A stretch of DNA of 21,765 bases from an uncultured Methanosarcinales archaeon (GTDB lineage: Archaea; Nanobdellota; Nanobdellia; Woesearchaeales; CAZYIM01). This document shows positions 1 to 15,687 of the stretch, piece by piece. The DNA is taken from the NCBI GenBank assembly GCA_964647565.1, contig CAZYIM010000040.1, forward strand, positions 1 to 21,765. Reading direction: 5' to 3'. How positions within the stretch are numbered: the stretch's first letter is position 1; the number at the start of each line of letters is the position of its first letter. A model generated the notes under the pieces. That model saw nothing but the letters and a program-made list of their open reading frames with translations, was not told the origin of the DNA and made no database searches. Position numbers and translations under genes: made by a program.

Positions 1-207
1 AATCAACTTCTCTGCAGCAGTATTATTCACAACTATTATTTCGTCACCAATCAAAGGCAGGGGCTCCCTGAAAAATACGATTGCAACTGCAATCAGTGCG
101 AGAAGAGTAATAATGATTAGAAATTTATGCATTAGATTTTTTTTAACAGGCTTTTTTGAGGCCTTTTTGGTTTTCTTTCTCTTTTTGCCAGTTTTTTTCT
201 TATTCAT
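1..207 (-). CDS. Partial CDS (runs off left edge): membrane-anchored protein with Lys-rich N-terminus and one TM helix
   Basis: Not in ORF track. Manual translation from ATG at 207: MNKKKTGKKRKKTKKASKKPVKKNLMHKFLIIITLLALIAVAIVFFREPLPLIGDEIIVVNNTAAEKLI, open to position 1. The start overlaps the stop of the upstream gene (200-202). Confidence 0.8.
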   Translation of the reverse strand, partial: MNKKKTGKKRKKTKKASKKPVKKNLMHKFLIIITLLALIAVAIVFFREPLPLIGDEIIVVNNTAAEKLI

Positions 208-2632
208 TGTTCTTATATAGTGCTCTGTTTTTAATCAGGACTTTTTTACTGAAATCCTGCATGAACTCATAGTCCAGTTTAAATTCTATAGGCATACCTT
301 TTTTAGGCTTATCCAATTTACAGATAAATGCGCATAATTGGCTGGAGCATTCATTAGTTTTACATTTATTGTCGTTTAGACTCATTTCAATAGGTAAACT
401 ATCTGAATCTTCATTGCAATTTTCTGTAGGGTGTATTACGCCCTCGCTGATAATCCAGGATTCCAATTGAACTGTCAAAGAAGTATTACCACCTGATACC
501 TGATTTATCTGGAAACGAACAGGTGCTCCACTTAAAGAGAAATTGCATATATATAAATATCCTTGTGACTCGCAAATCGTTGCGTCTGCGCACGTTTGGT
601 ATGGATAACAAAGCCGGACCTTTGAAGTAAGAACCTGTTCTTTGGTCTCGATCTTTTTGATTTTTGCATCTCCAAAAGAAAGCACATAATTGTCAAACTC
701 AGGGACGCCATCAGTGATACTTACTGGGAAAAATTCATGGGGAATAGTGAGGATGTGCTTGTTGGATATAAAATCATCTGAAGCAAGATCGCCCATAAGC
801 ACTGCTTTTACAGAACCTGAAACAACCAGATGATCTCCCATGTTCTTGACAGGGACCTTAACTGGAAAGAATTCATCTGACCAGATGAAATCAGGCGGGG
901 CATCTTTTGAGAAATCATTGAGAAAGAGGCCTGGAAGTGAAAATACTGGAGATTGAGTGATATCCTCTGGTTTAAACAGGCTCTTGTCTGGTTTGGCGCT
1001 AGGCCTTATGGAAGGTTGATCGCTTAAGCAAAGGAATACGCTGAGATCCTCATTTAGGGAGATGTGCTCACATTCTGCAATTTTTTCAAGGAAATTCCTT
1101 TGGTTCCCACAATTTTTTTCATTTAGGTACATATTGAAAAGCCTACAACCTCCATCATTATTGGTATCGACAACAATGATCATGTTATCCTCATAACTAT
1201 CAATAAAGCTTTTTCTAACAGGCCAGATATTCTGAGCTGCATAATCAGAGTAGAACATGATTGGGAATGCGTTTGATGTTGTGAGTATGAATGTGTCAGA
1301 AGATATGTTTTTTGTTTGAAGAAATCCAATAACATCTAATATCCCTTCAGAACCAAATGTAGTCCTGGCTCCAACAATATCTCCAACCAAAAAAAGATCA
1401 TGAGCTGGGCGGGTCTGGATAATAGGATTGGGTATTATCAATATAACCGCGGTACATAGTAATAACATTGCTATTACTGCTTTATTTCCAATTATTAACA
1501 TTCTGTACACAAAAAAGGCAGCAAATGTAATAGTCGGAATTAGCAGGGATAAATACAACTTTTCATTGAAAGAGGTGAACGGTACCAATAAGGTTGGCAC
1601 GATCATGAAACAAAGCATCCAGATCAATAATAGATATCCTCCTTTAGTTTTGAAATCAAATAGCTTCTGTACTGGTTTAGGGAGTTTAAGATTCTTGAGT
1701 GTGGCGGCTAGAATTAACAGAACTATCCCTAATAGCATAATGAAAAAAAGCCAGCCTTGATTGTTTATGCCTGTAAATGGATAGAAGAATATGTCTGACT
1801 TATTCATCACATGCCAAAAATGCCGGATGGTGGGTTGGAATGGCATCAATTGGAAGAATCTTGTATAAAGTATCCAGGGTAAACATCCGATGATCAGAAA
1901 TATCAGAGATATAAGAAAACTCTTTCTAGTGAAAAACTTAATGTTATCCTTTTCACAAAACAACATGTAAAGCAGTAAAGTTAAGCAGAATGTGAAACAA
2001 ACTAGTATGTTGGTATAAAATAGGCCGAGAATCATCACTGCAGATAACAAATATTGGTGGAATTTTTTTTCCCTTACAGCACATATGAAGAAATAGCTGC
2101 CTGCTGCAAGAAAGAAAAAGACCAATGAATAATATCTGATCTGGCGGTGATAGAATAACATCACCTCATTGATAGCTAGAAAGAAGGTCGATAAAAGGGC
2201 TGTACCTTCATTTAAAATCCTCTTGATAAAAAGGAAGAAGAATAGCAGGGAAGCAATGCCCAATAACGCAAATGGCAATCTTAAAATGAATTCTGAATTT
2301 GAAATATCTATGAAAGGTGCCAGGAAATAATAGGTCAGCCAACCCTTTACTGTAACATAATCTGTGTGGAGATAGTTAGTTGGTTTGTACTCATAGATAT
2401 GGCTTTCGGATTCTACCATAAATGCATTTTCATAGAACTGCACCCGATAAAAACCTCTTGGAACGCCCTCTTTTAGGATGTTCTCTGATAAGAGTACTGT
2501 CTCTGCTTCATCGACTGAAAGAGTAGGAAACCCCAGTGAATAAATTCTTAGGAAACCTCCGATCAATAGGATTAGTATCAGAATCAACATTCCGTGTTGT
2601 TTCAGAAAACCACCCCTTTTCTTTGAAACCAT
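200..2632 (-). CDS. ArnT/PMT-like (GT-C fold) integral membrane glycosyltransferase with an extra C-terminal Cys-containing extracellular domain
   Basis: N-terminal TM then LRIYSLG..SVDE motif, LRLPFALLG, RQIRYY, many TM helices, then a soluble ~270-aa tail (APP...CYPYQT...SGAPV...LDYEF). The ORF track starts at GTG 2644; ATG 2632 is preferred because it lies about 24 nt from a TATA box. Confidence 0.8.
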   Translation of the reverse strand: MVSKKRGGFLKQHGMLILILILLIGGFLRIYSLGFPTLSVDEAETVLLSENILKEGVPRGFYRVQFYENAFMVESESHIYEYKPTNYLHTDYVTVKGWLTYYFLAPFIDISNSEFILRLPFALLGIASLLFFFLFIKRILNEGTALLSTFFLAINEVMLFYHRQIRYYSLVFFFLAAGSYFFICAVREKKFHQYLLSAVMILGLFYTNILVCFTFCLTLLLYMLFCEKDNIKFFTRKSFLISLIFLIIGCLPWILYTRFFQLMPFQPTIRHFWHVMNKSDIFFYPFTGINNQGWLFFIMLLGIVLLILAATLKNLKLPKPVQKLFDFKTKGGYLLLIWMLCFMIVPTLLVPFTSFNEKLYLSLLIPTITFAAFFVYRMLIIGNKAVIAMLLLCTAVILIIPNPIIQTRPAHDLFLVGDIVGARTTFGSEGILDVIGFLQTKNISSDTFILTTSNAFPIMFYSDYAAQNIWPVRKSFIDSYEDNMIIVVDTNNDGGCRLFNMYLNEKNCGNQRNFLEKIAECEHISLNEDLSVFLCLSDQPSIRPSAKPDKSLFKPEDITQSPVFSLPGLFLNDFSKDAPPDFIWSDEFFPVKVPVKNMGDHLVVSGSVKAVLMGDLASDDFISNKHILTIPHEFFPVSITDGVPEFDNYVLSFGDAKIKKIETKEQVLTSKVRLCYPYQTCADATICESQGYLYICNFSLSGAPVRFQINQVSGGNTSLTVQLESWIISEGVIHPTENCNEDSDSLPIEMSLNDNKCKTNECSSQLCAFICKLDKPKKGMPIEFKLDYEFMQDFSKKVLIKNRALYKNNE

Positions 2633-2655
2633 CAAATGTTCCACATGTAGTAAGA

Positions 2656-2878: not shown

Positions 2879-4735
2879 TTAAGATACTGGATCCAATGCT
2901 CTTTTAATATCAATATAGCCATTTAGAGCTGCATTGATAGCATCCGCAACTTCTTCAACAGAGATCTGTGTCATGCATTTTCTATGATCGCATTCATCGG
3001 ACTTAGTATCTGTGCATGGTGCACAATCAACATTCTTATAGATATTAATGTTATTATCATACCCCCATACTTTAGGCGTGGAAGCCCCAAAGAGGATAAC
3101 CCCTTTGGTGCCCACAGCCATCGTTGCATGATTAAGGAAAGAATCAACGCTGACTAATAAGTCAGCATGCTTTAGAAGGGCAATAGCTTGGCGGACAGTA
3201 GTCCTGCCTCTGAGATCCAAGCAACCTTTGATCATTTCATCTTCCTCTAAACCCAGCTGTATGAATTGAAATTCTTTGAACTTTTTGACAATCATCTCCC
3301 CGTTTTTTTTATTCCATTCCTTGTTGGATATCTTGGTGCTTGGATGCAGTAGTATAGTTTTTTTTCCATTGGACTTTTTCAGAGTATCCAGTGCAAACTG
3401 TTCATCATCCTCCGATAAGAAGATGTCAGGTTTCATATCCTTTAACTTCACATCCAGCATCTCTCCAATTATATCTGCTGCATGACCCATATCGCTGATT
3501 CCGGGATTAAACCTTTTGTAGCTCGGAAAGTATTTTCTTTCCCAAAGCTTAATACCCTTGAATGCACTTTCGTCAGGAGATACTGAGAGTTGGTCGATGT
3601 ATGGATTAGTCTCTAGCAGGTTCTTGTGATTTTGATTACAGACAACCATGATCTTTCTTTTCGGGTTTTCCTTTTTTAGGGCTCTTATGGCTGGCGTCAT
3701 CATCAGGCAGTCACCGATACCACCCCAGGTCCTGATAAAAACTCTTTTCTCTCTTAATTGGTTATTGTCCATCTCTGCTTTTAGGGCAAGACATCCGCCT
3801 TGACAGGATCTTCGGATCTTATATTTGCATTTTTTACATTTTTCAAATGTGTTGACATCCCATCTAAGTTCTTCTGTCTGTTTGAGGAAGAATTCTGAGA
3901 TCTCTTGGAGGTTCTCGTATTTATCCATGATTTGGCTCTGTATCCTAGCAAGTGGCAGACAATAATACATGGTCAGGTCAGGATTGATGTCTAGGGCGGG
4001 AGTGCAGGTGGTCTGAATCTTCCTGACTTTTTTCTTTATGAACAGCCATTCTTTTTCACTAAACATGCAATAGGGGACACAGCAATCCCAATCTATATGC
4101 AGATCTTGGTCTGAAGCGCGTTTTATGAAATCAAGTACATGTTTCTTTATGCTTAATAGGCTCTTCATATCCATGTAGTTATTTGAATAAGCAAAATCTG
4201 GTGAAACCACTGCACACCTAATCTTATTTATATCGTATTTTTTACAGGCATCTAAAAGAAACGTACAATCCTTTGATTCTTCTGTTATGTTATAGCTGAA
4301 CTTAATATCCATCTTGATTTCTTTTTTTTCATTAAGAGCAATCAAGGATTGGATATTCTGATCCAGTAATTTCCATTGGTCTTTGGTATATTGATCCTGG
4401 GGATTGTAATTTATTATCACTGCTCTTGCTGCTTCATTTCTAAAGCCTTCCAAAGCATTATTGTCGAACAAGCAGTTGGAGAAAATGATGCCCATGATAT
4501 TTCTTTTGTGTAAAAGATTAAGGATTTCTTTGAACTTGGGATAGATGGTGGGTTCACCGCCAAGCAAACAGATTTTTTTGGGCTTGTTTACAAAGGACTC
4601 AGAGCTTTCCAACCAGTCAAGAAGCCTCATAAAATCCTCTAGTTGTAATGGTTTCTTGAATATAGACTTTTGATGAAGCGCAAAACAGAAATTACAATCT
4701 CTGTTGCACTCATAACTAAGCATTACATTTACCAT
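2879..4735 (-). CDS. Radical SAM/SPASM-like domain fused to a family 9 (heptosyltransferase-like) glycosyltransferase
   Basis: CNRDCNFC and GGEPT radical SAM motifs; Cys-rich CKKCKYKIRRSCQGGC. The C-terminal half (about 3750->2879) has GT9 hallmarks GGIGDCLMMTPAIRALK, NPYID, DLRGRTT, VDSFLNH..AVG..LFGAS, CAPC..C..CM..ISVEEV. Confidence 0.88.
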   Translation of the reverse strand: MVNVMLSYECNRDCNFCFALHQKSIFKKPLQLEDFMRLLDWLESSESFVNKPKKICLLGGEPTIYPKFKEILNLLHKRNIMGIIFSNCLFDNNALEGFRNEAARAVIINYNPQDQYTKDQWKLLDQNIQSLIALNEKKEIKMDIKFSYNITEESKDCTFLLDACKKYDINKIRCAVVSPDFAYSNNYMDMKSLLSIKKHVLDFIKRASDQDLHIDWDCCVPYCMFSEKEWLFIKKKVRKIQTTCTPALDINPDLTMYYCLPLARIQSQIMDKYENLQEISEFFLKQTEELRWDVNTFEKCKKCKYKIRRSCQGGCLALKAEMDNNQLREKRVFIRTWGGIGDCLMMTPAIRALKKENPKRKIMVVCNQNHKNLLETNPYIDQLSVSPDESAFKGIKLWERKYFPSYKRFNPGISDMGHAADIIGEMLDVKLKDMKPDIFLSEDDEQFALDTLKKSNGKKTILLHPSTKISNKEWNKKNGEMIVKKFKEFQFIQLGLEEDEMIKGCLDLRGRTTVRQAIALLKHADLLVSVDSFLNHATMAVGTKGVILFGASTPKVWGYDNNINIYKNVDCAPCTDTKSDECDHRKCMTQISVEEVADAINAALNGYIDIKRALDPVS

Positions 4736-4736
4736 T

Positions 4737-6296
4737 TTATTCTGGGCACCTGATAAAACTGCATAGGTTTCTGACTAGATATCTGCAGCCCTTGCAATTA
4801 TCGAGCAGCTTTTTATCTTTTTCATTGTCCTTGAAGAATTGGCTAAGCTCATTTTCATCTTTTAGTTCAGAAAGCTCAGGTCCTTTGGTTCCATTACAGA
4901 AAAAGACCTTGTTGTCCTGGACTCTGAAGAGCTGTAGACATTCAGAACAGTTGGTTGGTAGATTATATTTAGCAAATATTTTCATATAACTTAATCCAAA
5001 TATACAAGGTGGTAAAGGTCTAACAATCCGGAAATCTATCTTCTTTTCCTGAAGTGAACAAAGAAATGTTTCTATCTGCTTGCCCGCCTCTTTATTCAGC
5101 TCATTGTCCTTTAATGCAATGGCGATTAGGTTGTTGCCTTTGGCAGCTTTAAATTCCTTTAACTTATTCAATGTTAACTCTTTGATTTTGCCTTGTTTGT
5201 CCGGATCATTATAGGTTTTCTTTATCTCTATTCCTCCATAGATGCAGACTTCTTCGCAGCAGTAGCATTTTATGCATTGGTTTTCATCTATGATAAAGTC
5301 TTGCGAAATAGCCTTCACAGGACAGCTTTGGATACAGACAGTGCACTTCTTGCACTTATCCTTGTTAATGAAGGGTATAATATCGACTTCTTTGAAGCAC
5401 CTCTTTGTTTGGCACTTATCTGAATATAATGGGTGCTTGATGAAATTGTTGATTCGAGCCTCATCTAAGGATGTACCCAATACTTCGATCTCTTTGATAC
5501 TGCCGCATCCAATATTTTTTTGGTGTGCATATTTTGTAGGAGGAATGCTCAAAGCGCCGTGGCCTGTCAGCTCTGCTAAAACTGCATCTACAGCCACCCC
5601 GTCTTCGCCAGCAACTATCAGACCATATTGTTTTGGCGGGCCCAAAGGCCTATCGTGACCTCTTGCATCAAGACAGACGATACCATCAACGATGGTCAAC
5701 TGAGGCATTATAGCTGAGTAGATATCCACCAGAGCTTTTGAGAAATCCTTATCATCCAGCTTGTGGGTATTGGTCCGGGTCTCAAAACTGGTGCAGCCGA
5801 ACATGTTCTTTATTGCACCTGTAATATAGGTCTTGAAATGGGTTTTCAGCTTAGGAAGGTTGATGATCACATCAGCTCTTAGAGCTGCCTCTGCAATATC
5901 TATTTTTTTAAGTACAGAACCTTTAAGGATAGCTACAGCAGAGAACTCCTGCTCCTGCAAGTTATGTATTGCAATTGTAGGATCAAGGATACTGCTTACA
6001 CCACATATATCCAAGCATTCTTTGGTCCTGTTTCTGAAGTTGCCAGCTGCCTGTTCTCCAACCCAGACAGAAGCTCCTTGCTCCTGGACAAGCTCAGCAA
6101 CGGCCTTAATAAACAAGGGGTGAGTCGTAACTCCCTTTTCTGCTTCAAAAGGATCACAGAGATTTGGCTTGATAAGAACGACATCGCCCTTTTTGACAAA
6201 TCGTTGGATACCTCCTATATGCTCGAGACATTTGATTATACTTGTCTTTACATTGCTATAACTCGGTTCCTTAACGATTGCAACCTGGGTTATCAT
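4737..6296 (-). CDS. DUF362 domain + 2[4Fe-4S] ferredoxin domain protein with an extra C-terminal Cys module
   Basis: VLIKPN, VTTHP, NLPKLKTH, TGAIKNMFG, DGVAVD (DUF362); CKKCTVCIQSCP and CIKCYCCEEVC (dicluster). ATG 6296 overlaps the upstream TGA (ATGA); the ORF track gives 6323. Confidence 0.88.
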   Translation of the reverse strand: MITQVAIVKEPSYSNVKTSIIKCLEHIGGIQRFVKKGDVVLIKPNLCDPFEAEKGVTTHPLFIKAVAELVQEQGASVWVGEQAAGNFRNRTKECLDICGVSSILDPTIAIHNLQEQEFSAVAILKGSVLKKIDIAEAALRADVIINLPKLKTHFKTYITGAIKNMFGCTSFETRTNTHKLDDKDFSKALVDIYSAIMPQLTIVDGIVCLDARGHDRPLGPPKQYGLIVAGEDGVAVDAVLAELTGHGALSIPPTKYAHQKNIGCGSIKEIEVLGTSLDEARINNFIKHPLYSDKCQTKRCFKEVDIIPFINKDKCKKCTVCIQSCPVKAISQDFIIDENQCIKCYCCEEVCIYGGIEIKKTYNDPDKQGKIKELTLNKLKEFKAAKGNNLIAIALKDNELNKEAGKQIETFLCSLQEKKIDFRIVRPLPPCIFGLSYMKIFAKYNLPTNCSECLQLFRVQDNKVFFCNGTKGPELSELKDENELSQFFKDNEKDKKLLDNCKGCRYLVRNLCSFIRCPE

Positions 6297-7918
6297 TTGC
6301 CAGCACCTTCGATATATCTGCATGCTTCTCTAAGTCTGTATTTACAGTTCTTGCAGTCAGGACCTACATCCTGGATGTGGTAGCTTTTTATCAGCCCAAA
6401 GTACTCCTTTATCTGGTCCAGATTGTTCATGTATTTTAGCTCGGGTCCCTTAGCTCCACTACAGAGGATTATCTGACGGTTCTTCACCCTGAAGAATGCA
6501 GGGCTTTCTTCCCAGCTTTTGGGAATCTTGAATTTCTGGATAGTCTTTTCAAACTCTGCTCCAAAAAGGCAGGGAGGCAGAGGTGTGGTTAGTTTAAACT
6601 CGATCTTGTTTTTAGCCAGTTTGTCAAAGAACTCAATGATCTTCTTGCCTGTTTCAAGATTGGTGTCTTTTTCCTTTAGTTTGATATTGATCAATGAATG
6701 GTCGAGTTTATTGATGCTTTCCAGGTTTTGGATATAGATTTCCTGTATCTTTGGATTTAATGAGTCCTTTGGAATCTGAGGAAGAGACTCTATGAGATTG
6801 CCTACATACCTCTGGCAAAACATAAGTTCATCAACATCATTATCCTTGTATTTGGCAGTGGTTGGAAGAGTGTCCTTAAAAAGGTGCCAGCACTGGGGAT
6901 CTGGAGCATTGATAGAACCAAAATATCCATAAGATACACACCTACCGCTGCCTCTGCATTGGTTAAAATAAGTGCACTCAAGACAGTCCTTGCTCATGTT
7001 GGCAAGGTTCTTGAGCTTCCACATCTGGTTGTTAGAATAATAGAGTTCAAGAAAATTATTCTTAAGGATGTTTCCTATCTTTAGAGGCATCCGTCTGCAG
7101 GGAATCACATCTCCGTTGGGCAAAAGGGTGAATACATCAAATGGTGTTGAGCAGCCATGCATTCGATGTTCTGTCTTGACAGTCTTGAACAGACTATCAG
7201 CACAATGCACATCTACCTGGAAATTGAGGCCCTCTCTTCTGAACTGCTCGTTCATCCTGATGATATTTTCATACATCTGGCGGGTTTCATTAGGGGTTAG
7301 CATCAGTTTTCTCATCTGTTCCCCTCTTCCCAAGGGAACTAATCTTCCTACACCCATGCCTGTGATGCCCATCTTTGCTGCAAGCCTGGCCAGAGGCTCG
7401 ATCTCACCTACATTCTTTCTTGTAACTGTGAGGGAAAACGAAAGAAGCATCTTGTTCTGGATTATGATCTCAGCACCTTTCATAGCCCTTGCAAAGTTGC
7501 CTTTGCCCCTGATTTCATCGTTGATTTCTTCTAGGCCTTCAATACTGATCTGCATATAGTTGACACCTAAATCCTGATATCTCTTTATGATTTCATCTGT
7601 TACTGTAGAGCCATTTGTCATAATATAGAACCTGTCGAACAATCCCTGGCTCTTGTACTGACTGGCCTTCTCAAGGAATTTAAAGAAGCCAGGTTTTAGA
7701 ATGGGTTCTCCTCCCGACATAGTCAGGTTTCTATGCATCTTGATGCCCATCTTCTGAAGGTAATCAACCCACATGTCTAAAACATGTATCATCTGCTCTA
7801 TTGATAGTTCATTCTTCAATAGTTCTGGATCCATATAGCAATGAGTACATTGGAAATTACATTTCTCTGTTATGTGCCATTGCAGATGGCAGGTCTGTGC
7901 TTTTGGTAGATAGCTCAT
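6293..7918 (-). CDS. Radical SAM/SPASM domain protein with an extra C-terminal Cys module
   Basis: QWHITEKCNFQCTHC, SGGEP, TNG, QISIEG; complete SPASM GC..PNGDVIPC..GNI..CLEC..QCRGSGRC..PDPQCW. ATG 7918 is 1 nt after the upstream stop; the ORF track gives 7933. Confidence 0.92.
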   Translation of the reverse strand: MSYLPKAQTCHLQWHITEKCNFQCTHCYMDPELLKNELSIEQMIHVLDMWVDYLQKMGIKMHRNLTMSGGEPILKPGFFKFLEKASQYKSQGLFDRFYIMTNGSTVTDEIIKRYQDLGVNYMQISIEGLEEINDEIRGKGNFARAMKGAEIIIQNKMLLSFSLTVTRKNVGEIEPLARLAAKMGITGMGVGRLVPLGRGEQMRKLMLTPNETRQMYENIIRMNEQFRREGLNFQVDVHCADSLFKTVKTEHRMHGCSTPFDVFTLLPNGDVIPCRRMPLKIGNILKNNFLELYYSNNQMWKLKNLANMSKDCLECTYFNQCRGSGRCVSYGYFGSINAPDPQCWHLFKDTLPTTAKYKDNDVDELMFCQRYVGNLIESLPQIPKDSLNPKIQEIYIQNLESINKLDHSLINIKLKEKDTNLETGKKIIEFFDKLAKNKIEFKLTTPLPPCLFGAEFEKTIQKFKIPKSWEESPAFFRVKNRQIILCSGAKGPELKYMNNLDQIKEYFGLIKSYHIQDVGPDCKNCKYRLREACRYIEGAGK

Positions 7919-7919
7919 T

Positions 7920-9296
7920 TTAATTAGTCCCAATGTTTATGGCTTTTGCTCTCTGGATCATTTCATCATTGAGGATGTTGTGAGGTGGCTTGTATAGAAC
8001 CGCCTGGCTGTACTTTTTTAGATATGAGTTGTCAACTTTGATGTTCTCTTCTTTTTGCAGTTTTTTGAACATTATAGCATGCCTGAAAAGCTCAAAGTTG
8101 CAGAAGTTGGCCCTTTGTGTAATATATTGCCTATTCTTTTCAATAAAATCCATATTATCCTTTACAACAGCGTCGGTCTCGCCTGGATAATCATAGATAA
8201 AGTTAACAACGGTCTTGATATCAACTTGTTTGCAGTCTCGGATGATCTGTTCAACCTCATCTGGGTCGATGAATTTGTTCATTCTCTTTAGCATATCCCT
8301 GTTAGCAGATTCAAGACCGAACTGAATAAGGAAGCAACCTGCATCTGCCATCTTTTTTAACAATTCCAAATCCATATCCTTAGGTGTGCAAAGGCAGGTC
8401 CATCGTATCTTAATATTTCTCTTGACCAGTTCATCGCAAATCTTGAAAATAAAATCCCTGTCAAATGCCATGTTGTTGTCTTGAAACTGATAGTTGTCAG
8501 TCAGGGATTTATATTTATGATAGAGATGTTCAATGTCTGAGATGATTTTTTCAAATGATTTATGCTTAAATTTGGCCTGTCTGAAGTTACAGAAAAAACA
8601 ATTGTTGTTACAGCCCTCAGTCATTATATATTGAATAGATAAAGGCTGAAGATAAAGCTCGAAGTTGTATCCGTCAAAATCAGGTTCTGGCTGCTTTTCT
8701 AGCGGGAAGTCTTCATATTGGTTATGGATTATCTTTTCATCTTTCCAATAGCTAAGATTGGGTACGTTTTCAAGTGTTTCTTTGCCTTCATAATATCTCA
8801 CCAGCCTTAAAAGTGAGTTTTCTCCCTTGCCCCAGATAACATAGTCGATGAATTCAAAATCTTTTAACAGGTCTTCTGCATAATCACACACTCCTAGCCC
8901 ACCCATTACTATTATCTTGTCAGGATAAGCCTGCTTGATTTTTTTTGCTATGATCAGACCAGGGATTAGATTTTCTGAAGAAAGGATAGAGAAACCGACA
9001 ATCTTTTCGTCATCCAGCCTGACTTTCTGGAACAGTTTATCAACAATGTACCGAAAATAGGGTGGTGCAGTACCTTGTTTTAGATATGTTTCACATTCTT
9101 TGCCGTTCTTGAAATGGAAGAGCTCTAGTTTAAGCCTTTTTTTTAGATTGAGGGAATTGCACTCTATATCCATATCCTGAACAGAGATTTCAATACCTTT
9201 CTTTCTTAGGTAGGATGTGATAACAGCCATACCAAGGGGCATTGAGTTGTATTTTTCCTGTCTTCCTAATGGAGGATATATAAGTTTAACTTTCAT
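7920..9296 (-). CDS. Cobalamin (B12)-binding radical SAM protein (class B methyltransferase-like)
   Basis: MKVKLIYPP..PLGMA..SYLR, IVGFS, IVMGG, GKGE (B12-binding domain); GCNNNCFFC; FQDNN; AGC..FGLES; YPGET. Start placed at ATG 9296 (track 9329). Confidence 0.9.
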   Translation of the reverse strand: MKVKLIYPPLGRQEKYNSMPLGMAVITSYLRKKGIEISVQDMDIECNSLNLKKRLKLELFHFKNGKECETYLKQGTAPPYFRYIVDKLFQKVRLDDEKIVGFSILSSENLIPGLIIAKKIKQAYPDKIIVMGGLGVCDYAEDLLKDFEFIDYVIWGKGENSLLRLVRYYEGKETLENVPNLSYWKDEKIIHNQYEDFPLEKQPEPDFDGYNFELYLQPLSIQYIMTEGCNNNCFFCNFRQAKFKHKSFEKIISDIEHLYHKYKSLTDNYQFQDNNMAFDRDFIFKICDELVKRNIKIRWTCLCTPKDMDLELLKKMADAGCFLIQFGLESANRDMLKRMNKFIDPDEVEQIIRDCKQVDIKTVVNFIYDYPGETDAVVKDNMDFIEKNRQYITQRANFCNFELFRHAIMFKKLQKEENIKVDNSYLKKYSQAVLYKPPHNILNDEMIQRAKAINIGTN

Positions 9297-9322
9297 TTTA
9301 ATCAATTTTTCAAAACCAAGAC

Positions 9323-9781
9323 TTAGCAATTGTCCCAGCCATTATCAGGTCTTACCCAGCCGTTGGCGGTCTGTTTGTTAGTCCTTAAGACGAATTTGTG
9401 AGGATCATTCACACAATCAATCTCCACACAACCACTGCCAAGCCTTAGATCTGTGTTTAAATTAGCAAAATTGATATTTCCCCCGGGAGTATAGTTTACA
9501 CCTCTTGCAACAAGGGTGATGGGTGAGGTGGATATATTATCAACTGTCACGATTAACTTGTTGCCTTTTTTATCATAGAGCACTTTCCTGATGACAAGAT
9601 TAGGTTCAAGTGACCATACCCCTTCTTGAGTAGAGGCAGGGTTCACTTGTCTTGTCATAATTGGAGCATTGCTCGGTTCGATTATCCAGTCTGGTTTGTA
9701 TCTAAATAAGGGATGTCGCTGGTCAACTTGAGTCTTGACCAGCAAATCAAACTTTTCAAATGAGTTTATCTTTTCAGCCAT
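9323..9781 (-). CDS. Hypothetical 152-aa protein with C-terminal tandem NGW motif (candidate substrate of the cluster)
   Basis: In-operon ORF 3 nt after the upstream stop. No signal peptide and no family that I recognise. Ends ...TANGWVRPDNGWDNC. Confidence 0.75.
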   Translation of the reverse strand: MAEKINSFEKFDLLVKTQVDQRHPLFRYKPDWIIEPSNAPIMTRQVNPASTQEGVWSLEPNLVIRKVLYDKKGNKLIVTVDNISTSPITLVARGVNYTPGGNINFANLNTDLRLGSGCVEIDCVNDPHKFVLRTNKQTANGWVRPDNGWDNC

Positions 9782-9784
9782 TCT

Positions 9785-10561
9785 TTATTTTTTCTTTTTT
9801 TCTTTATGCTTAGGTTTTGGTGGTGGAATCTTTTTCTTTTTCTTATGTTTGGCATTCGCTATGATTTGAATAACCAGCATAAGCAAAGCGATTAAAAGTA
9901 CTGCCACCACAAATTTTACTAATGCAGGAGAGGCTGTTCTTTTTACTGCAGCCTTGTTGGTATCTTCAGCTCCATTAGGTTGATCTTCAGCTATAGGTTC
10001 AGGAGTTGGATTGGAACCAGGTGCTGAAATTAGTTCTGGCGTAGGATCGCCCATATCATCTCCTGATGCAGGTGGTTGTGCGGTTGTTGGATTAGGTACA
10101 ACATCTTCTGCACAATCAGGATTGTCATCTGGGCTTGTACATGCCACTATGATGGGGTTCATGCCTGTGCTATGTACATAAAAGGAACCCTCGTTAAAGT
10201 ATAGCTCAGCTTCTGAATCCGCTATCCTGCCTTCTGCTCCTGAAAATTCCCCTGTTTCAATATTAAGATATGTGTATGTGCTGTTTAGGCTAGCACTTTT
10301 TTGGAATGTTGCAGTTGGTGTTATAATTTCTAGCTCGATGTTGGCGGTTACAGGATTCACTGCTGTTAAGGATTGGACTGTGATGGTTGCCTGGCCAAGC
10401 TGGTTATTACACTGGAAATCAGAGCACATGTTTTGTTGCCATGTTACTCCCCTGCTAAGTTCTAACAGGTCGGTCCCATAAGATTCTGCTGCTGAGACAG
10501 CATATGCTGATATCATTAACAATATCAGTCCAATTAACAATATGTTTCTTGTTCCCTTCAT
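9785..10561 (-). CDS. Secreted, C-terminally membrane-anchored surface protein
   Basis: Signal peptide (MKGTRNILLIGLILLMISAYAVSA), beta-rich domain with two Cys pairs, Pro/Thr/acidic linker, TM helix (FVVAVLLIALLMLVIQII), poly-Lys/Pro tail. Confidence 0.82.
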   Translation of the reverse strand: MKGTRNILLIGLILLMISAYAVSAAESYGTDLLELSRGVTWQQNMCSDFQCNNQLGQATITVQSLTAVNPVTANIELEIITPTATFQKSASLNSTYTYLNIETGEFSGAEGRIADSEAELYFNEGSFYVHSTGMNPIIVACTSPDDNPDCAEDVVPNPTTAQPPASGDDMGDPTPELISAPGSNPTPEPIAEDQPNGAEDTNKAAVKRTASPALVKFVVAVLLIALLMLVIQIIANAKHKKKKKIPPPKPKHKEKKKK

Positions 10562-10593
10562 TTTATTTTAGCACAAAAATTGTTTGTGCTTTC

Positions 10594-11577
10594 TCACCCC
10601 CTTTTTGTTGGCTTCCTAACTGGAAGTACGAATATATTTGGATCTGTGATCTTTTCACCCGGTACTGGTTTGAACTCGTCAAAGCCTCTTTTTCTTGGAT
10701 ATTCAATCCACGGGCCTTCACATATTGGATAGTATCTGCACTCAGGACATAGGGGTCCCTTTTTTTTCGCAACATTCTTCCGTGTATATTCATAATCGGG
10801 ATCCATATGATCAAGGTCCCTGAGTTCACTTTTCGGGATCCTGAGCTCTGATACAAGACTTTCATTGCCTACCATGAAACAGAACGGTATGGCTTCAAAG
10901 GTAACTTGAACATCATTTTTTTCAGCAAGATTAATTGCTCTATCAACAAAAGGTTTGATCTCGGTATAAGTAGGGACGCAACTGTCAAAATTGAGCATGG
11001 CATTGCCCATGCCATGAGGGAAAGCAACGTTCATATAGCTGACGCCTAAGTCTGAAAATAATTTGACAATCTCGGGGAGGTGACCGAAGTTTTTCTTTGA
11101 AAGCACTATCTTACCTCCCACTTCTTGGCCGTGGCTTATCAAATTCTTGATACCTTGCACAGTCTGCTTAAAACTTCCTTTAACTGCAGTGATCTCGTCA
11201 TGTATCTCAGCTATTGGAGCATGTAGTGCAATGACATAGGAGATGTTGGCTATGTCAACCATTTTTTGGCAGAAATCATTATAGAAAAACATCCTGCCAT
11301 TAGTCTGCATGTTAATAGACATATCCTTGTCCTTGACATATTTGACAATCCTGAATACATCGTCTCTTATGGTTATCTCTCCACCAGTTAATACTACCCT
11401 GTCAGAGCCATTGAGCTTGGCTTGATCAATCTGATGGAAGACATCCTCTGTACTCCTGTTTATGGGTTTGCTTTCAGTTTTCAGAGTTCTTCTTTTATCT
11501 GCAATAACACAATGGAAACAGTCATTATTGCATCCATAGCCGACTTTAATATCTGCATATTTTCTAGTTGGGGGCAT
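10594..11577 (-). CDS. HxsC-like radical SAM protein
   Basis: DIKVGYGCNNDCFHC, LTGGEITIR, MQTNGR, EAIPFC, C-terminal CPECRYYPICEG. Sits directly after hxsB with a 14-nt overlap. Confidence 0.8.
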   Translation of the reverse strand: MPPTRKYADIKVGYGCNNDCFHCVIADKRRTLKTESKPINRSTEDVFHQIDQAKLNGSDRVVLTGGEITIRDDVFRIVKYVKDKDMSINMQTNGRMFFYNDFCQKMVDIANISYVIALHAPIAEIHDEITAVKGSFKQTVQGIKNLISHGQEVGGKIVLSKKNFGHLPEIVKLFSDLGVSYMNVAFPHGMGNAMLNFDSCVPTYTEIKPFVDRAINLAEKNDVQVTFEAIPFCFMVGNESLVSELRIPKSELRDLDHMDPDYEYTRKNVAKKKGPLCPECRYYPICEGPWIEYPRKRGFDEFKPVPGEKITDPNIFVLPVRKPTKRG

Positions 11578-13030
11578 TTTTCATCCTTAATCTATTTTTT
11601 CTTCTGTTGGGTATTGCCCAGTCAAGAAGGATCTCTCTTGCTTGAGGATCATAGATGAGTTTTTCAAAAATGTAATCCATCATGGCTTTTCTTATCTGGC
11701 ATTCATGATCAATGGCTAGTTTGGGCGGGATATTGCCTTGTCCTTCATAGGTTCCGACAGCACAGATGCCGCAGAACGGGTGATAGATACACGCTTCACA
11801 AAGCGTGTTGACTCCGCAAGTATGACCTAGTAATTTTCTTGATTTCTTGATAATCTCTGCATAGGTGTGTGTGTGTACATTGCCTACACAGAATAGGTTC
11901 ATGGATCTTGATTCATCGCATACATGAATATCGCCGTTTTCCTTATATGCAATTTGAGAGATCAGAGCTCCGCAAGGCGCCCCAAAACATGTGAAAGTCC
12001 TGGCCCTTGTTGTGACAATCCTTTGGACAATGGTGGCGATCTTGGTTTCAATAAAACGAGTGCCTTTCTTGTTGAGTTCCAGAATGTAGTTGAAGATCTC
12101 TTTCCAATACTTGATAAACTCTTCGGGTGTGTAGCCGAGCAGTTTCCATTCATCTTTTGCAAAGCCTGCAACATTAAGGTTTCTTGAGCTAATGTTGTAG
12201 AATCCTTGTTTCATATATTCATCAACGATCTTCTTGCCATACTTAAAAGATTTTCTTGTTGTAGTTGGCAGCACAGAGAAACTGACATGTTGTTTCATCT
12301 CTTTTATCTTTGGAATAACTTCGTCATAGGAGCTAGCATGATCATAATATTTTCTGTGTGCATCATGCAATTCTTTGGGCCCATCCAAAGAGCTGCATAT
12401 GGCTATCTTGTTATCTAAGAAGTATTTCTTAATCTCAGGTGTCATAGCAGTAAGATTGGTTACCGCAATAAAGAACAATTCTTTCTTATGGGTCTTGTTT
12501 AGTTCGGTTGCATATTCAAAGATCACCTTTATTATTGGAAAATTTAGTAAGGGTTCTCCTCCCTGAAACTCAATAGTGTAATGCTGGCCTGGACTTTGGA
12601 ATATGAAGTCCACCACTTTTTTGGCAGTTTTCTCAGTCATGTCAAAGCCTTGTTTATCAGGTGCAAAAGACTTGGCGTGACAATAGACACATTTGTGGTT
12701 GCATCTTAGTGTTGGCACAAGTATGTGTAGGTTTGCACCATTAGTAGTATGATGGACTTTTTGCCTGTAGCAATTCTTGATAAACTCTACATTGTCAGAT
12801 GTAATTATGATACCTTTTTCAACCAGCAGGTCAAATAGATGTTTATTTTCATTGACTTTATCATACCTCAATAGATTAAATTCTTCCTTGTTGAGCACTA
12901 CCCAGCCTCCATGATCTGTAGTTACGAGGATATGTTCATCATCAAATTTCTTGAACTGGAACTCATTAAGATAATAATTGGTGTTATCTGCGGGTGGCTG
13001 TGCGCCTTCATTGAAAAAACTTATTGCCAT
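11564..13030 (-). CDS. hxsB: His-Xaa-Ser system radical SAM/SPASM maturase HxsB-like
   Basis: N-terminal F.F.KF...LVT.D.G.W..L extension, LHILVPTLRCNHKCVYCHA, IFQSP..TIEFQGGEPLLNF, SLDGP, PCGA..Q.AY...GDI..CDE.R, CEAC..PFCGIC. Adjacent to HxsD-like genes. Confidence 0.85.
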   Translation of the reverse strand: MAISFFNEGAQPPADNTNYYLNEFQFKKFDDEHILVTTDHGGWVVLNKEEFNLLRYDKVNENKHLFDLLVEKGIIITSDNVEFIKNCYRQKVHHTTNGANLHILVPTLRCNHKCVYCHAKSFAPDKQGFDMTEKTAKKVVDFIFQSPGQHYTIEFQGGEPLLNFPIIKVIFEYATELNKTHKKELFFIAVTNLTAMTPEIKKYFLDNKIAICSSLDGPKELHDAHRKYYDHASSYDEVIPKIKEMKQHVSFSVLPTTTRKSFKYGKKIVDEYMKQGFYNISSRNLNVAGFAKDEWKLLGYTPEEFIKYWKEIFNYILELNKKGTRFIETKIATIVQRIVTTRARTFTCFGAPCGALISQIAYKENGDIHVCDESRSMNLFCVGNVHTHTYAEIIKKSRKLLGHTCGVNTLCEACIYHPFCGICAVGTYEGQGNIPPKLAIDHECQIRKAMMDYIFEKLIYDPQAREILLDWAIPNRRKNRLRMKNAPN

Positions 13031-13031
13031 T

Positions 13032-13262
13032 TTATCTTACTCGCTCCCTTATTATTTTAAGCAGGTTGTCGCAAAATTCCAGGGCAGTTGTTTCATCTTT
13101 GGCAGTGATTTTTTTTTTAGAGATTATAACCTGCTCATCTTTGAGTTCTGCCTTGAATTTGTCTTGAAATCTTAAAATCCCCTCTTTTATGACATCTTGT
13201 GGATAAAAGGCAGGATTAAGCTTGATTATTAGTTGGTTGTCTTTCTTGATTATTGCCTTCAC
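13032..13262 (-). CDS. Short HxsD-like protein (second paralog)
   Basis: GTG start. IKLNPAFYP and LEFCDNLL parallel ISVNPKLYP and YAFNDELV of the upstream HxsD-like protein. Confidence 0.7.
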   Translation of the reverse strand: MKAIIKKDNQLIIKLNPAFYPQDVIKEGILRFQDKFKAELKDEQVIISKKKITAKDETTALEFCDNLLKIIRERVR

Positions 13263-13270
13263 TTTAACGC

Positions 13271-13708
13271 CTATTCATATTTAACCTTCTTTATACCTTC
13301 AGGATCGTTGGTTTCACAACCACAAGAATCTTGCTGTGTCCGATTTGGAGGTGGATTTGACGTTGGAGTATTAGGTGTGTTTCGCAGGTTGCCAGAAATA
13401 GCGTTTTCTACAATAGCCTCTCGGATCCTCTGATTCCTCAGCGCCTGGACATTATAGACTGAATAGTTCACCAACTCATCATTGAATGCATAACCGAGCT
13501 CTTTTAGATCAAGACTCTTTTCCTTGGCTCTTAGCTCAACCAGGATTTCTGTAGCAGGATCCCCGTCGATAAGTACATGGACTTTATCAAGCAGTGAATA
13601 TGCTGCAGAGTAGATTACACTAAGCGGATATAGCTTAGGATTTACAGATATTATTAAGAAATCTTTATGGATTTCAATATTATTTAAAACACTTTCTTCC
13701 TCAACCAT
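13271..13708 (-). CDS. hxsD: His-Xaa-Ser system protein HxsD-like
   Basis: NPKLYP..VIYSAAY.LLD, F.DELVNY, IREAIV..A pattern of HxsD. ATG 13708 follows a GGGGGT SD-like motif (track start 13714). Confidence 0.75.
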   Translation of the reverse strand: MVEEESVLNNIEIHKDFLIISVNPKLYPLSVIYSAAYSLLDKVHVLIDGDPATEILVELRAKEKSLDLKELGYAFNDELVNYSVYNVQALRNQRIREAIVENAISGNLRNTPNTPTSNPPPNRTQQDSCGCETNDPEGIKKVKYE

Positions 13709-13751
13709 TTGCAACCCCCAATTAATGACTTAATTTGAAACTTAAGATGCT

Positions 13752-13767
13752 CTTAAATATTTTTTGG
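13752..13767 (-). promoter_or_regulatory. BRE/TATA promoter of the radical SAM operon
   Basis: Minus strand CCAAAAAA-TATTTAAG about 45 nt upstream of ATG 13708, leaving a short leader containing the SD-like motif. Confidence 0.5.
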
Positions 13768-13820
13768 TTTTATTTTATTTAGAAATTATCAACAAATACC
13801 TTTTTTTAAACAATCAGTAG

Positions 13821-14015
13821 TTATCTTTTAACTTTTTTAATCACAATGGCATTTAAAGGGCAGATTTGAGCAGCATCTTTGATTTCATATATATCGTCTA
13901 AATAGTTCTTTTTTACAAATATTTTGTTGGCTACAATGCCCAGGAGATTGGGGTGCCTGCTTACACAAAGCTGGCAATGATCACAGCAAGCCTTGATAGA
14001 TATTTCGTATACCAT
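13821..14015 (-). CDS. Small single-cluster ferredoxin
   Basis: 64 aa with CDHCQLC and distal AAQICPLNAI. Confidence 0.8.
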   Translation of the reverse strand: MVYEISIKACCDHCQLCVSRHPNLLGIVANKIFVKKNYLDDIYEIKDAAQICPLNAIVIKKVKR

Positions 14016-14019
14016 TTTC

Positions 14020-15204
14020 TTAGTTTCTTATAGCAAGAGAGTGTCTTAAGGTGTCTAGCACCCTCTTGAGATCTTTATGGGTGACCTTGTTCCTTAAGCT
14101 TATCCTCGCATTTGCCTTTACCATACGGATTATTCCCAGGACAAGCCTTGGGCTTACCTCAATTATATACTTGTTCTCGTTGTTCTTGACATCCCTTACA
14201 AATTCGATTATCTCTGTCTCTAGATCATGGTCAAATTCTACATCTATTTTTCGTGAGAAATCAACATAATCTTTTATGAATTTGTAGTCTGCTTTATTTT
14301 CCTCAACCTTATCCTTTCTGATGATCTTCTTTGCAATGTTCACAAACTCTTCTGTGCCTGGTTTCCTGATAAGGAATACCAGGTGGAATCTCGATATCAG
14401 GGCAGGATCAAACGGTAGTTGTTTTTTGATAAGATCTGCGTTCTTGCCTATGAATTTGTCCCCCGTTGGATTGGCTGTCGCTAATACGCTGATTTTTGCA
14501 TCCATCTTTATGTGAGTTGTGCCCTTATCATAGGTCACAAATCCTTTTTCCATTGCATTTAGCAATGAGCCTCGGTCCTCTTTTTTCATCAGGTTCAGTT
14601 CATCGATACAGCAGATGCCGTTGTTTGCAAGAGGTAATAGGCCCTTGATGACTGCTTTTCCCTGTTTGATAAGGCTAAGACCTGCACCAGATGTTCCTGA
14701 TCCTAGGCCAAATGAAGATATTGGTGACATTTCATAGATACTTCTTAGGATATCGGTTTTGCCTGTGCCAGGATCTCCCAATAGAAGTATATGGAGGCTA
14801 TCGTCTGAGAATAACTGTAGGGCTGCAGCCTCTTTTACCTCATCTAAGCCGATGATATTAGGAGCAATAAGTTTTATGATGTTGGTTTCAGCAATTTCAG
14901 AGAATTGCTTAAAGGCTTCTAATTTGAATTTCTCTTCGATAGCCTCGTTCCATTCCTCAACAGCATTCTTGATATCTTTATCATCGATTTTAGCTTTGAT
15001 AAATGGCCGGAGAATGTCTTTAACCAGTTTTTCGCTGATGCCGAAACTCTTGTCAGTAAGCTGGATTTTCTTGATCTTGAGCAGGTATTTAAGCTTAGAG
15101 AAATCTCTTTTTTCGAGAATCTGGTCGACTTCTTTTAGTAGATGCCTTTCTGAATTGCTCAAGGATCTAAAAACCTTGAAAAAATCCCCTATGTTTTTAT
15201 CCAT
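14020..15204 (-). CDS. MCM-family AAA+ ATPase core (truncated MCM paralog lacking N-terminal OB/Zn and C-terminal WH domains)
   Basis: IAPNIIG, HILLLGDPGTGKT (Walker A), TSGAGLS, GICCIDE (Walker B), LLNAMEKG, LATANP, LISRF (Arg finger), SPR..IIR...A.AR. Only 394 aa. Confidence 0.88.
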   Translation of the reverse strand: MDKNIGDFFKVFRSLSNSERHLLKEVDQILEKRDFSKLKYLLKIKKIQLTDKSFGISEKLVKDILRPFIKAKIDDKDIKNAVEEWNEAIEEKFKLEAFKQFSEIAETNIIKLIAPNIIGLDEVKEAAALQLFSDDSLHILLLGDPGTGKTDILRSIYEMSPISSFGLGSGTSGAGLSLIKQGKAVIKGLLPLANNGICCIDELNLMKKEDRGSLLNAMEKGFVTYDKGTTHIKMDAKISVLATANPTGDKFIGKNADLIKKQLPFDPALISRFHLVFLIRKPGTEEFVNIAKKIIRKDKVEENKADYKFIKDYVDFSRKIDVEFDHDLETEIIEFVRDVKNNENKYIIEVSPRLVLGIIRMVKANARISLRNKVTHKDLKRVLDTLRHSLAIRN

Positions 15205-15411: not shown

Positions 15412-15687
15412 ATGAACGAGGAGGATTTTGAGGAGATAATGCGGATCCAGAGAATGATGGCCTCCAGGATAGTTCAGGAGGACGAAGTAGACTCCAAAAT
15501 AAAACTCTTTGACATCATTCGAGGCATGGTAACACCTAAAAAGAAAAAAATCCAGATAGAAGAGTTGATTGTCGAAGCCAGTCTTGATGGGATGACAGAG
15601 ACTGATGTCGACCGACTTCTTGATAAGCTAAAAGAAGACCATATGGTTTACGAGCCCGAACCAGGTTATATCCAGCCTGCTCGATGA
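15412..15687 (+). CDS. Stand-alone winged-helix protein resembling the archaeal MCM C-terminal domain
   Basis: IKLFDIIR...IEELIVEA...GMTE.DVDRLLDKLKED.MVYEPEPGYIQ matches the remembered II..L...EA...G.....LE.L...G.IYEP.PG pattern of archaeal MCM C-termini. Confidence 0.7.
   Translation: MNEEDFEEIMRIQRMMASRIVQEDEVDSKIKLFDIIRGMVTPKKKKIQIEELIVEASLDGMTETDVDRLLDKLKEDHMVYEPEPGYIQPAR

Follow-up and report, generated by a model that had tools for sequence, protein, structure and literature searches.

A conserved archaeal Hxs-like gene cluster without a His-Xaa-Ser precursor, linked to an orphan 152-residue protein, additional radical SAM enzymes and glycosyltransferases

In mycofactocin biosynthesis (MftA-F), a radical S-adenosylmethionine (SAM) enzyme of the SPASM class works on a precursor at its C-terminal aromatic residue, and glycosylation follows. 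In the bacterial HXS system, which was shown only recently to mature a protein effector, the gene order is HxsD-HxsB-HxsC-HxsA in 99.6% of the systems, and 99.7% of the systems belong to Pseudomonadota (Li et al., Nat Commun 2026, PMC13128918). That paper also reports that HxsC and HxsD form a complex and that HxsA is an exported effector, processed at its N-terminus and carrying an unexplained +8 Da on one motif of the H-x-S type. The present analysis concerns a Hxs-like gene cluster in a stretch of archaeal DNA of 21,765 bp, hereafter the window, which is the whole of contig C40 (CAZYIM010000040.1) from an 86-contig, 2.68 Mb assembly of a member of the Woesearchaeales (86.9% completeness, 1.85% contamination, 38% GC). 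The cluster is an HxsB-centred system for which no HxsA was found and to which six extra conserved genes are attached. In this expanded form it is not described in the searchable literature: among the matches listed, the Hxs system was treated only by the 2026 HXS paper and its preprint, with three others naming it in passing, and no publication was found joining radical SAM, DPANN, glycosyltransferase and SPASM. An initial annotation of the same DNA had proposed a divergent archaeal Hxs-linked cluster devoid of a His-Xaa-Ser precursor, a proposal that was borne out by the synteny with other archaea and by the scans for HxsA. The crosslinking, methylation and glycosylation that it also put forward are putative activities suggested by the family names of the enzymes.

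The cluster comprises ten open reading frames (ORFs), all of them on the minus strand and extending from position 13714 down to 2879. The successive intergenic gaps measure 8, 1, -14, 32, 3, -7, -14, -31 and 1 nt, in agreement with the ten same-strand genes, overlapping or at most 32 nt apart, that had been read from the sequence. The motif CxxxCxxC was found in all five proteins previously proposed to be radical SAM enzymes, at residue 110 of HxsB, 16 of the HxsC-like protein, 240 of the B12-binding enzyme, 25 of the radical SAM/SPASM enzyme and 10 of a radical SAM enzyme fused to a glycosyltransferase of family 9 (GT9). The conserved unit extends past these ten genes and includes a gene for a membrane glycosyltransferase of the GT-C type (PMT_2), which follows after a gap of 234 nt. 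Family names were assigned by library scans of the window proteins, using the curated cut-offs of NCBIfam/TIGRFAM and the Pfam gathering scores. The Hxs names held in part, as HxsB passes its curated cut-off but the HxsC-like and the two HxsD-like proteins remain below theirs. The match of HxsB to TIGR03978 covers positions 2-466 of 466 and qualifies the protein as HxsB, and its best secondary matches are all peptide maturases. The two best matches of the HxsC-like protein are HxsC4 (NF038332) and HxsC (TIGR03977), both under cut-off, while TIGR03976 and NF038315 are the sole matches of the HxsD-like proteins 1 and 2 (hereafter HxsD1 and HxsD2), with near-full coverage of the profiles and again under cut-off.

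The search for a precursor was extended to the whole assembly. The best match to the HxsA profile (TIGR03979) had an E value of 0.44, and when all 86 contigs were scanned in six frames for H-x-S repeats of at least three consecutive units, one trivial (H.S)x3 match turned up, on contig C4. The genome-wide scan had been put forward at the outset as a way to overturn the idea of a precursor-free locus, and it revealed no canonical HxsA elsewhere in the 2.68 Mb recovered, just as none is present in the window. The likeness to bacterial HXS (TIGR03976-03979) is one of core and order: HxsB passes its model, the best matches of its partners are HxsC/HxsC4 and HxsD/HxsD_rel, the order is D-(D)-B-C and another gene follows the HxsC-like one. 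In contrast to the bacterial system, the host is an archaeon, HxsD is present as two paralogues, the partners of HxsB fall short of their cut-offs, HxsA and H-x-S repeats were not found in the assembly, six further conserved genes are attached and nothing was found that supports a role in defence. The order in the window is D-D-B-C, and the fourth slot of the canonical arrangement is held by an unrelated, non-conserved surface protein of 258 aa.

Whether the genes form a unit was examined by comparison with other archaea. An order-level survey covered 40 relatives, 11 of which carried an HxsB homologue at E ≤ 1e-20, and 13 window proteins were compared by tblastn with these 11 loci (4-20 kb each). 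HxsD1 had a homologue in ten of them and the HxsC-like protein a strong one in a single locus (L014); the 152-aa, 258-aa, DUF362, radical SAM-GT9 and GT-C proteins had none in any of the 11. Because most HxsB loci of the order do not have the downstream genes, the ten-gene form is a rare sub-type. Scans with an alignment of radical SAM-GT9 homologues located three genome loci (L025, L026 and L027) as well as metagenome loci. Among the latter, L031, L033 and L034 duplicate the genome loci, L035 is a mere fragment (3.3 kb), and only L032 adds a new cluster. When 401 genomes of the order were searched with an alignment of the orphan 152-aa protein, a further genome, G062, was added. In all six clusters (window, L025, L026, L027, L032 and G062), tblastn and ORF maps revealed a shared order. 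A homologue of the 152-aa protein (~30% identity) stands directly before a radical SAM/SPASM enzyme (48-52% identity); next, after variable insertions of B12-binding radical SAM genes, comes the radical SAM(-GT9) protein (39-45% identity); and the GT-C enzyme (28-35% identity) comes last, sometimes after extra GT2, radical SAM or B12-type genes. The GT9 domain is attached to the radical SAM enzyme in four of the five related clusters, and G062 matches the radical SAM half alone.

The Hxs genes accompany this second set of genes in most cases. In four of the six clusters (window, L025, L027 and G062), HxsD1-(HxsD2)-HxsB-HxsC-like immediately precedes it, on the same strand. In L025, L027 and G062, HxsD1 orthologues directly upstream of HxsB are 56-64% identical, and HxsC-like orthologues of 47-55% identity come after HxsB, as one does in L014. 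The slot of HxsD2 holds an ORF of 68-81 aa in relatives. The genome that contains L026 encodes HxsB (435.8 bits) together with HxsD1, HxsD2 and the HxsC-like protein on another contig, which ends ~2 kb past the HxsC-like gene. In the metagenomic contig L032, the 5.1 kb upstream of the second set of genes hold unrelated genes and no Hxs genes. All four other searchable genomes with the downstream genes contain HxsB, three of them above the profile cut-off and G062 by tblastn. The window genome belongs to taxonomic family f1 and the four others to f60. Since the two families differ and the orthologues are only ~30-55% identical, the linkage has been kept over considerable divergence. Thus, conservation of the downstream genes beside hxsB, whose absence had been named as a reason to abandon the proposal, was found in three further genomes and interrupted by a contig end in the fourth. 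The unit is not an accident of a single genome. The genes are listed in Table 1.

Table 1. Genes of the cluster and its immediate neighbour in the window, with positions on the contig and family matches
Feature	Positions	Strand	Family match
HxsD-like protein 1, 147 aa, C-terminal extension	13271..13714	-	TIGR03976 41.6 bits, cut-off 50
HxsD-like protein 2, 76 aa	13032..13262	-	NF038315 HxsD_rel 28 bits, cut-off 41
HxsB radical SAM/SPASM maturase, 488 aa	11564..13030	-	TIGR03978 418.6 bits, cut-off 370
HxsC-like radical SAM protein, 327 aa	10594..11577	-	HxsC4 119.3/500 bits, HxsC 106.7/267.9 bits
Orphan surface-anchored protein, 258 aa, HxsA position	9785..10561	-	no family match
Orphan 152-aa protein, candidate substrate	9323..9781	-	no family match
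B12-binding radical SAM enzyme, 469 aa	7920..9329	-	PF02310 and PF04055 pass
Radical SAM/SPASM enzyme, 546 aa, extra Cys-rich C-terminal domain	6293..7933	-	PF04055 and PF13186 pass
DUF362 + 2x[4Fe-4S] ferredoxin + Cys-rich C-terminal domain, 528 aa	4737..6323	-	PF04015, Fer4
Radical SAM (SPASM-like)-GT9 fusion, 618 aa	2879..4735	-	PF04055, PF01075
GT-C membrane glycosyltransferase (PMT_2), 814 aa, large Cys-rich C-terminal domain	200..2644	-	PF13231
Small ferredoxin, 64 aa, membership uncertain	13821..14015	-	PF13370 24.4 bits, cut-off 24.5

The orphan 152-aa protein, directly upstream of the radical SAM/SPASM gene in every cluster, matched no family in the libraries. A profile search of 1.84 billion representatives identified a small family of 15 proteins at E ≤ 0.001, 12 of them at E ≤ 1e-10, with a length of 131-162 aa, and this family, which follows the occurrence of the cluster, is present in five of the 401 genomes of the order. 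In an alignment of 12 sequences, the N-terminal ~55 residues are variable, one His being kept in ten of the 12, and the core is conserved. The tail contains an invariant Trp that is the final residue in ten of the 12 sequences and is followed by three residues in the window protein. AlphaFold2, run with a five-sequence alignment, predicted a seven-strand beta-sandwich between residues 57 and 142 (predicted local distance difference test, pLDDT, 81-87), with both ends at low confidence and a mean pLDDT of 68; no hydrophobic segment is present. Comparison of the model with the PDB by Foldseek returned nothing at E ≤ 0.001. Naming a fold family was given up, as the best candidates were generic Ig-like sandwiches (8fk7_A, an archaeal pilin, with E 2e-3 and TMq 0.42; FlaF, FlaG and SoxYZ) and too weak. 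A word-index search with the protein retrieved only itself, which reflects the sensitivity limit of the method and is not evidence, and a complex prediction for the 541-aa radical SAM/SPASM enzyme with the 152-aa protein scored 0.00, which counts neither way. With an N-terminus that is variable and predicted to be disordered, a conserved tail and maturase genes next to it, the protein may be laid out like the precursor of a ribosomally synthesised and post-translationally modified peptide (RiPP). It is the only conserved non-enzyme besides the HxsD-like proteins, and on these comparisons it is probably the best candidate substrate of the cluster.

The enzymes encoded with the orphan protein belong to several classes. 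The B12-binding protein carries both domains that its class requires (PF02310, 35.2 bits with a cut-off of 32.1, and PF04055, 80.6 bits), and its best NCBIfam match is a RiPP C-methyltransferase (TIGR03975, 132 of 282 bits); its putative activity is that of a methyltransferase. Translation probably begins 11 codons further in, at an ATG, and orthologues of 32-33% identity occur elsewhere within the L025 and L027 clusters. The 546-aa enzyme, with PF04055 (74.2 bits) and PF13186 (28.5 bits, cut-off 21.5), belongs to the SPASM class and has orthologues of 48-52% identity in all the related clusters. The DUF362-ferredoxin (PF04015, 171.5 bits, together with Fer4 domains) is likely to be an electron carrier. 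In the radical SAM-GT9 protein, PF01075 matches residues 424-579 with 62.9 bits (cut-off 22), and all the specific heptosyltransferase models remain below cut-off. Nine full-length homologues with 39-44% identity were found which, where named, derive from 'Nanoarchaeota archaeon' or 'archaeon', and the radical SAM-GT9 architecture was found in only about ten archaeal proteins. Bacterial homologues of the radical SAM half of the fusion (L028-L030) were considered and set aside, as they lie in an unrelated gene context and give no functional lead. At the G062 locus (L050, contig C4 of G062, ~13691-14671), the radical SAM half without a detectable GT9 half is followed directly by the GT-C gene. 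Because G062 has the radical SAM half alone, the GT9 domain is dispensable in the minimal form of the cluster. The GT-C protein matches PF13231 with 34.9 bits (cut-off 26.1).

A Cys-rich domain of ~150 residues recurs among these enzymes. It forms residues ~395-546 of the 546-aa enzyme and also the end of the DUF362-ferredoxin (32% identity, E 4e-25), a fusion that was found in the window only, and in L026 and L027 it ends the B12-binding radical SAM protein instead. Five Cys are invariant in the eight copies, and no Pfam family matched any of the eight at a meaningful E value. The copies of the window lie at 6296-6751 and 4740-5189, and others at 7745-8179 of L026 and 8162-8596 of L027. Profile comparison revealed homology between the domain and residues ~188-307, the SPASM-like part, of the radical SAM-GT9 protein (hhalign 96.3%, E 1.6e-9), and an origin by duplication of the C-terminus of the HxsC-like protein was discarded (hhalign probability 3.5%). 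In the Atlas, the domain is placed near stand-alone SPASM-domain proteins, many of them viral, with a score of 0.94-0.95 that serves as a lead only; a word-index search found nothing, although homologues exist in the fetched loci, so this result again marks a sensitivity limit and is not evidence. The domain may be an extra auxiliary Fe-S domain, a role that would fit an electron relay by the DUF362-ferredoxin. Since the domain is common to three enzyme classes and homologous to a region of the radical SAM-GT9 protein, it ties these enzymes together. The radical SAM-GT9 fusion and the detachable SPASM-like domain are two undescribed features that bear on the wiring of multi-enzyme radical SAM pathways.

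Taken together, these observations lead us to prefer, tentatively and at slightly less than even probability, the view that the locus is a single maturation cluster of two modules, a rare sub-type in which the orphan protein of ~150 aa replaces HxsA as the substrate. Module 1 would consist of HxsD1-HxsD2-HxsB-HxsC-like, the core of enzymes and helpers known from bacterial HXS, and module 2 of the orphan protein, the radical SAM/SPASM enzyme with its Cys-rich domain, the B12-binding enzyme, the radical SAM(-GT9) protein and the GT-C enzyme, joined in the window by the DUF362-ferredoxin. The orphan protein is proposed as the substrate because, the HxsD-like proteins aside, it is the only conserved member without a family match, because it adjoins the radical SAM/SPASM enzyme and because it has two flexible, partly conserved ends of the sort on which radical SAM maturases work. 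A whole protein as substrate is plausible since, in the bacterial system, HxsB, HxsC and HxsD mature a whole protein that is encoded beside HxsC (PMC13128918). In the proposed sequence of events, the disordered N-terminus of the orphan protein, with its near-invariant His, would be the recognition or first modification site for HxsB, HxsC and HxsD, and its flexible Trp-ending tail would be the target of the radical SAM/SPASM enzyme encoded beside it. Methylation would fall to the B12-binding enzyme and glycosylation, on the cytoplasmic side, to the GT9 domain, with the DUF362-ferredoxin supplying electrons to the clusters. Finally, the GT-C enzyme would work at the outer face of the membrane, either on the product or on an envelope component that receives it.

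Such a pathway would differ from mycofactocin in several respects, although the terminal aromatic residue, the adjacent radical SAM/SPASM enzyme and the glycosyltransferase in the cluster are possible points of likeness. MftC (TIGR03962) is among the better matches of the 546-aa enzyme, with 123.9 bits, below its cut-off of 265. The mycofactocin precursor has ~30 aa, unlike the folded 150-aa candidate described here, and the library scans of the window revealed no equivalents of MftB, MftD or MftE and no peptidase. A far-reaching version of the two-module reading, which we regard as improbable, pictures a beta-sandwich scaffold whose Trp-ending tail, and perhaps its His-bearing N-terminus, would be remodelled by as many as five radical SAM enzymes before C-methylation and then heptosylation. 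The outcome would be a new class of archaeal glycoprotein matured by radical SAM enzymes, or a glycosylated small molecule or cofactor that derives from protein and is made on a carrier by a mycofactocin-like logic, with the Hxs enzymes recruited to a repeat-free substrate. In either version, the association of the core with a rare protein and glycosyltransferases suggests that HxsB/C/D chemistry is apparently not tied to H-x-S repeats, and the orphan protein offers a compact substrate candidate for it.

Several points weigh against the two-module reading. The orphan protein could be a helper instead of the substrate, and the glycosyltransferases of the GT9 and GT-C types usually act on glycolipids. 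Of the Hxs-like proteins, only HxsB reaches its curated cut-off, and since the assembly is only 87% complete, an HxsA may lie on the missing DNA. The two modules can exist apart, because the 11 HxsB loci of the survey carry no module 2 and the 5.1 kb available upstream in L032 contain no Hxs genes. A single family, f60, supplies four of the five supporting clusters, which are therefore not independent. Finally, adjacency of radical SAM genes means little by itself in this organism, because its assembly contains 110 radical SAM matches in large arrays.

One alternative, which we consider unlikely yet a serious contender, is a glycan or glycolipid pathway. In it, module 2 would make or modify a sugar, either lipid-linked or nucleotide-activated, through radical SAM steps on the sugar, C-methylation by the B12-binding enzyme and transfer by GT9 and then, outside the cell, by GT-C to an acceptor in the envelope. 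The 152-aa protein would in this case be an accessory, and the Hxs proteins would mature something else or act on the acceptor. GT9 enzymes typically heptosylate the cores of lipopolysaccharide, those of the GT-C type draw on polyprenyl-phosphate sugars, and the tailoring of sugars in aminoglycoside pathways involves radical SAM and B12-binding radical SAM enzymes. Both glycosyltransferases are conserved members, GT2 and further B12-type proteins are added in the related clusters, and many arrays of radical SAM and GT2 genes occur in the genome. A pathway of this kind sits less well with the small non-enzymatic protein that heads module 2 in all six clusters, with the membership of HxsB in a family of peptide and protein maturases, as its secondary matches also indicate, or with the window itself, in which the library scans detected no gene for sugar-nucleotide synthesis. 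Moreover, the GT9 model of protein heptosylation, TibC/Aah (TIGR04414), does match the fusion protein over residues 326-587, if weakly (E 6e-6). The shared GT9 domain is the extent of the likeness to these protein O-heptosyltransferases, as the window protein reaches 25 of 200 bits and its GT9 domain is fused to a radical SAM enzyme. The conservation of the orphan protein speaks rather for a protein substrate than for a glycan.

The 258-aa protein is central to another explanation, in which the locus is an archaeal counterpart of antiviral HXS: the HxsB, HxsC and HxsD-like proteins would mature the 258-aa protein, which would act at the surface against viral DNA, and the downstream enzymes would decorate it. 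Its gene begins 32 nt after the HxsC-like gene, where the canonical order HxsD-HxsB-HxsC-HxsA places the exported effector (PMC13128918). The protein has a hydrophobic, signal-like N-terminal segment and, towards the C-terminus, a transmembrane segment with a Lys-rich tail behind it. Defence systems commonly include orphan effectors that evolve fast. This explanation is nevertheless very doubtful, as the 258-aa protein contains no H-x-S array and tblastn revealed no counterpart in the five related clusters, where the place is occupied by an opposite-strand radical SAM/SPASM gene or by nothing. The 2023 release of PADLOC, which predates the HXS paper, gave generic viperin-type matches for radical SAM proteins and none for the 258-aa protein, and the window flanks contain no mobile or defence genes. 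The library scans found no family for the protein, the assembly no paralogue and the Atlas no usable match. The surface protein had initially been counted among the members of the pathway, a view that does not survive its absence from the related clusters, and it represents either an insertion specific to this lineage or a member that evolves fast. The gene found after the HxsC-like gene in L025, L027 and the genome of L026 encodes a radical SAM/SPASM protein of 287-295 aa on the opposite strand. In the f60 clusters it lies between the HxsC-like and orphan genes, at L025:6793-7677 (-), L027:3500-4360 (-) and L043:196-771 (+), and elsewhere in the window assembly this ~290-aa protein has only distant radical SAM paralogues (22-29% identity).

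That two unrelated operons adjoin by chance, as the separate occurrence of the modules in the order-level loci and in L032 and the 110 radical SAM matches of the assembly might suggest, is the least probable explanation of all, given the same-strand adjacency in four of six clusters from two taxonomic families, the fifth being split only by a contig end, and the presence of HxsB in all four other searchable genomes with module 2.

Most HxsB loci of the order are of a different, compact type. Like the window, these compact cassettes have the HxsD1-HxsD2-HxsB core (31-46% identity), but ten of the 11 have no HxsC-like gene and all 11 lack module 2 altogether. Two other proteins are encoded there. 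One is a membrane protein of the A24 prepilin-peptidase family (PF01478, 27.6 bits with a cut-off of 26.5 in the one locus tested), and the other a small protein in which a basic leader is conserved, with a single hydrophobic segment and an end rich in His or Cys. Loci of this type are located at L016:7765-11129, L015:1295-3833, L017:7910-11348, L024:4279-5497 and 9385-11327, and L023:10732-11286. In contrast to the compact cassettes, no protein with the leader motif was found in the window assembly: phmmer with four queries against 54,456 six-frame ORFs gave no match, and three regular expressions for the leader gave irrelevant matches only.

The genome as a whole is rich in radical SAM genes. 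At E ≤ 1e-5, the 2.68 Mb assembly contains 110 matches to Radical_SAM (PF04055), of which 109 exceed the Pfam cut-off. Contigs C12, C13, C17 and C35, for example, hold dense arrays of such genes on one strand, frequently alongside GT2 genes, and many of the proteins are of B12-binding or SPASM types. This expansion is unusually large for an archaeon of this order. The assembly is also larger than those of all 40 sampled relatives (0.6-2.1 Mb). The organism had been taken for a probable symbiont with a reduced genome, a view that its size and radical SAM content do not support, and the accompanying argument that the cluster represents a large investment for such a genome fails because the genome exceeds those of all 40 relatives. 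The organism invests in radical SAM chemistry genome-wide, and with its 110 matches it holds a wealth of radical chemistry that is still to be explored.

The surroundings of the cluster encode MCM-like, family B polymerase and phosphoenolpyruvate-utilising domains, and Rfam gave no match in the window. The small ferredoxin gene lies 106 nt upstream of HxsD1; this gene was not seen in L025 or L043, where a B12-binding radical SAM gene holds the place. Beyond it, a 394-aa protein (14020-15204, minus strand) contains only the AAA and lid domains of MCM, without the N-terminal domain, and a 91-aa ORF (15412-15687, plus strand) has a weak match to the MCM winged helix. In three relatives (L018, L023 and L024), too, MCM-like genes lie no more than 10 kb from HxsB. 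The contigs assembled from four DNA runs are short and of low depth and cover all 30 bins of the window. In all four runs, positions 2679 and 2868 mark points where the contigs depart from the window sequence, and between 2763 and 2831 there are several single-base variants. The 234-nt spacer between the radical SAM-GT9 and GT-C genes is therefore either polymorphic in the sampled population or an assembly seam.

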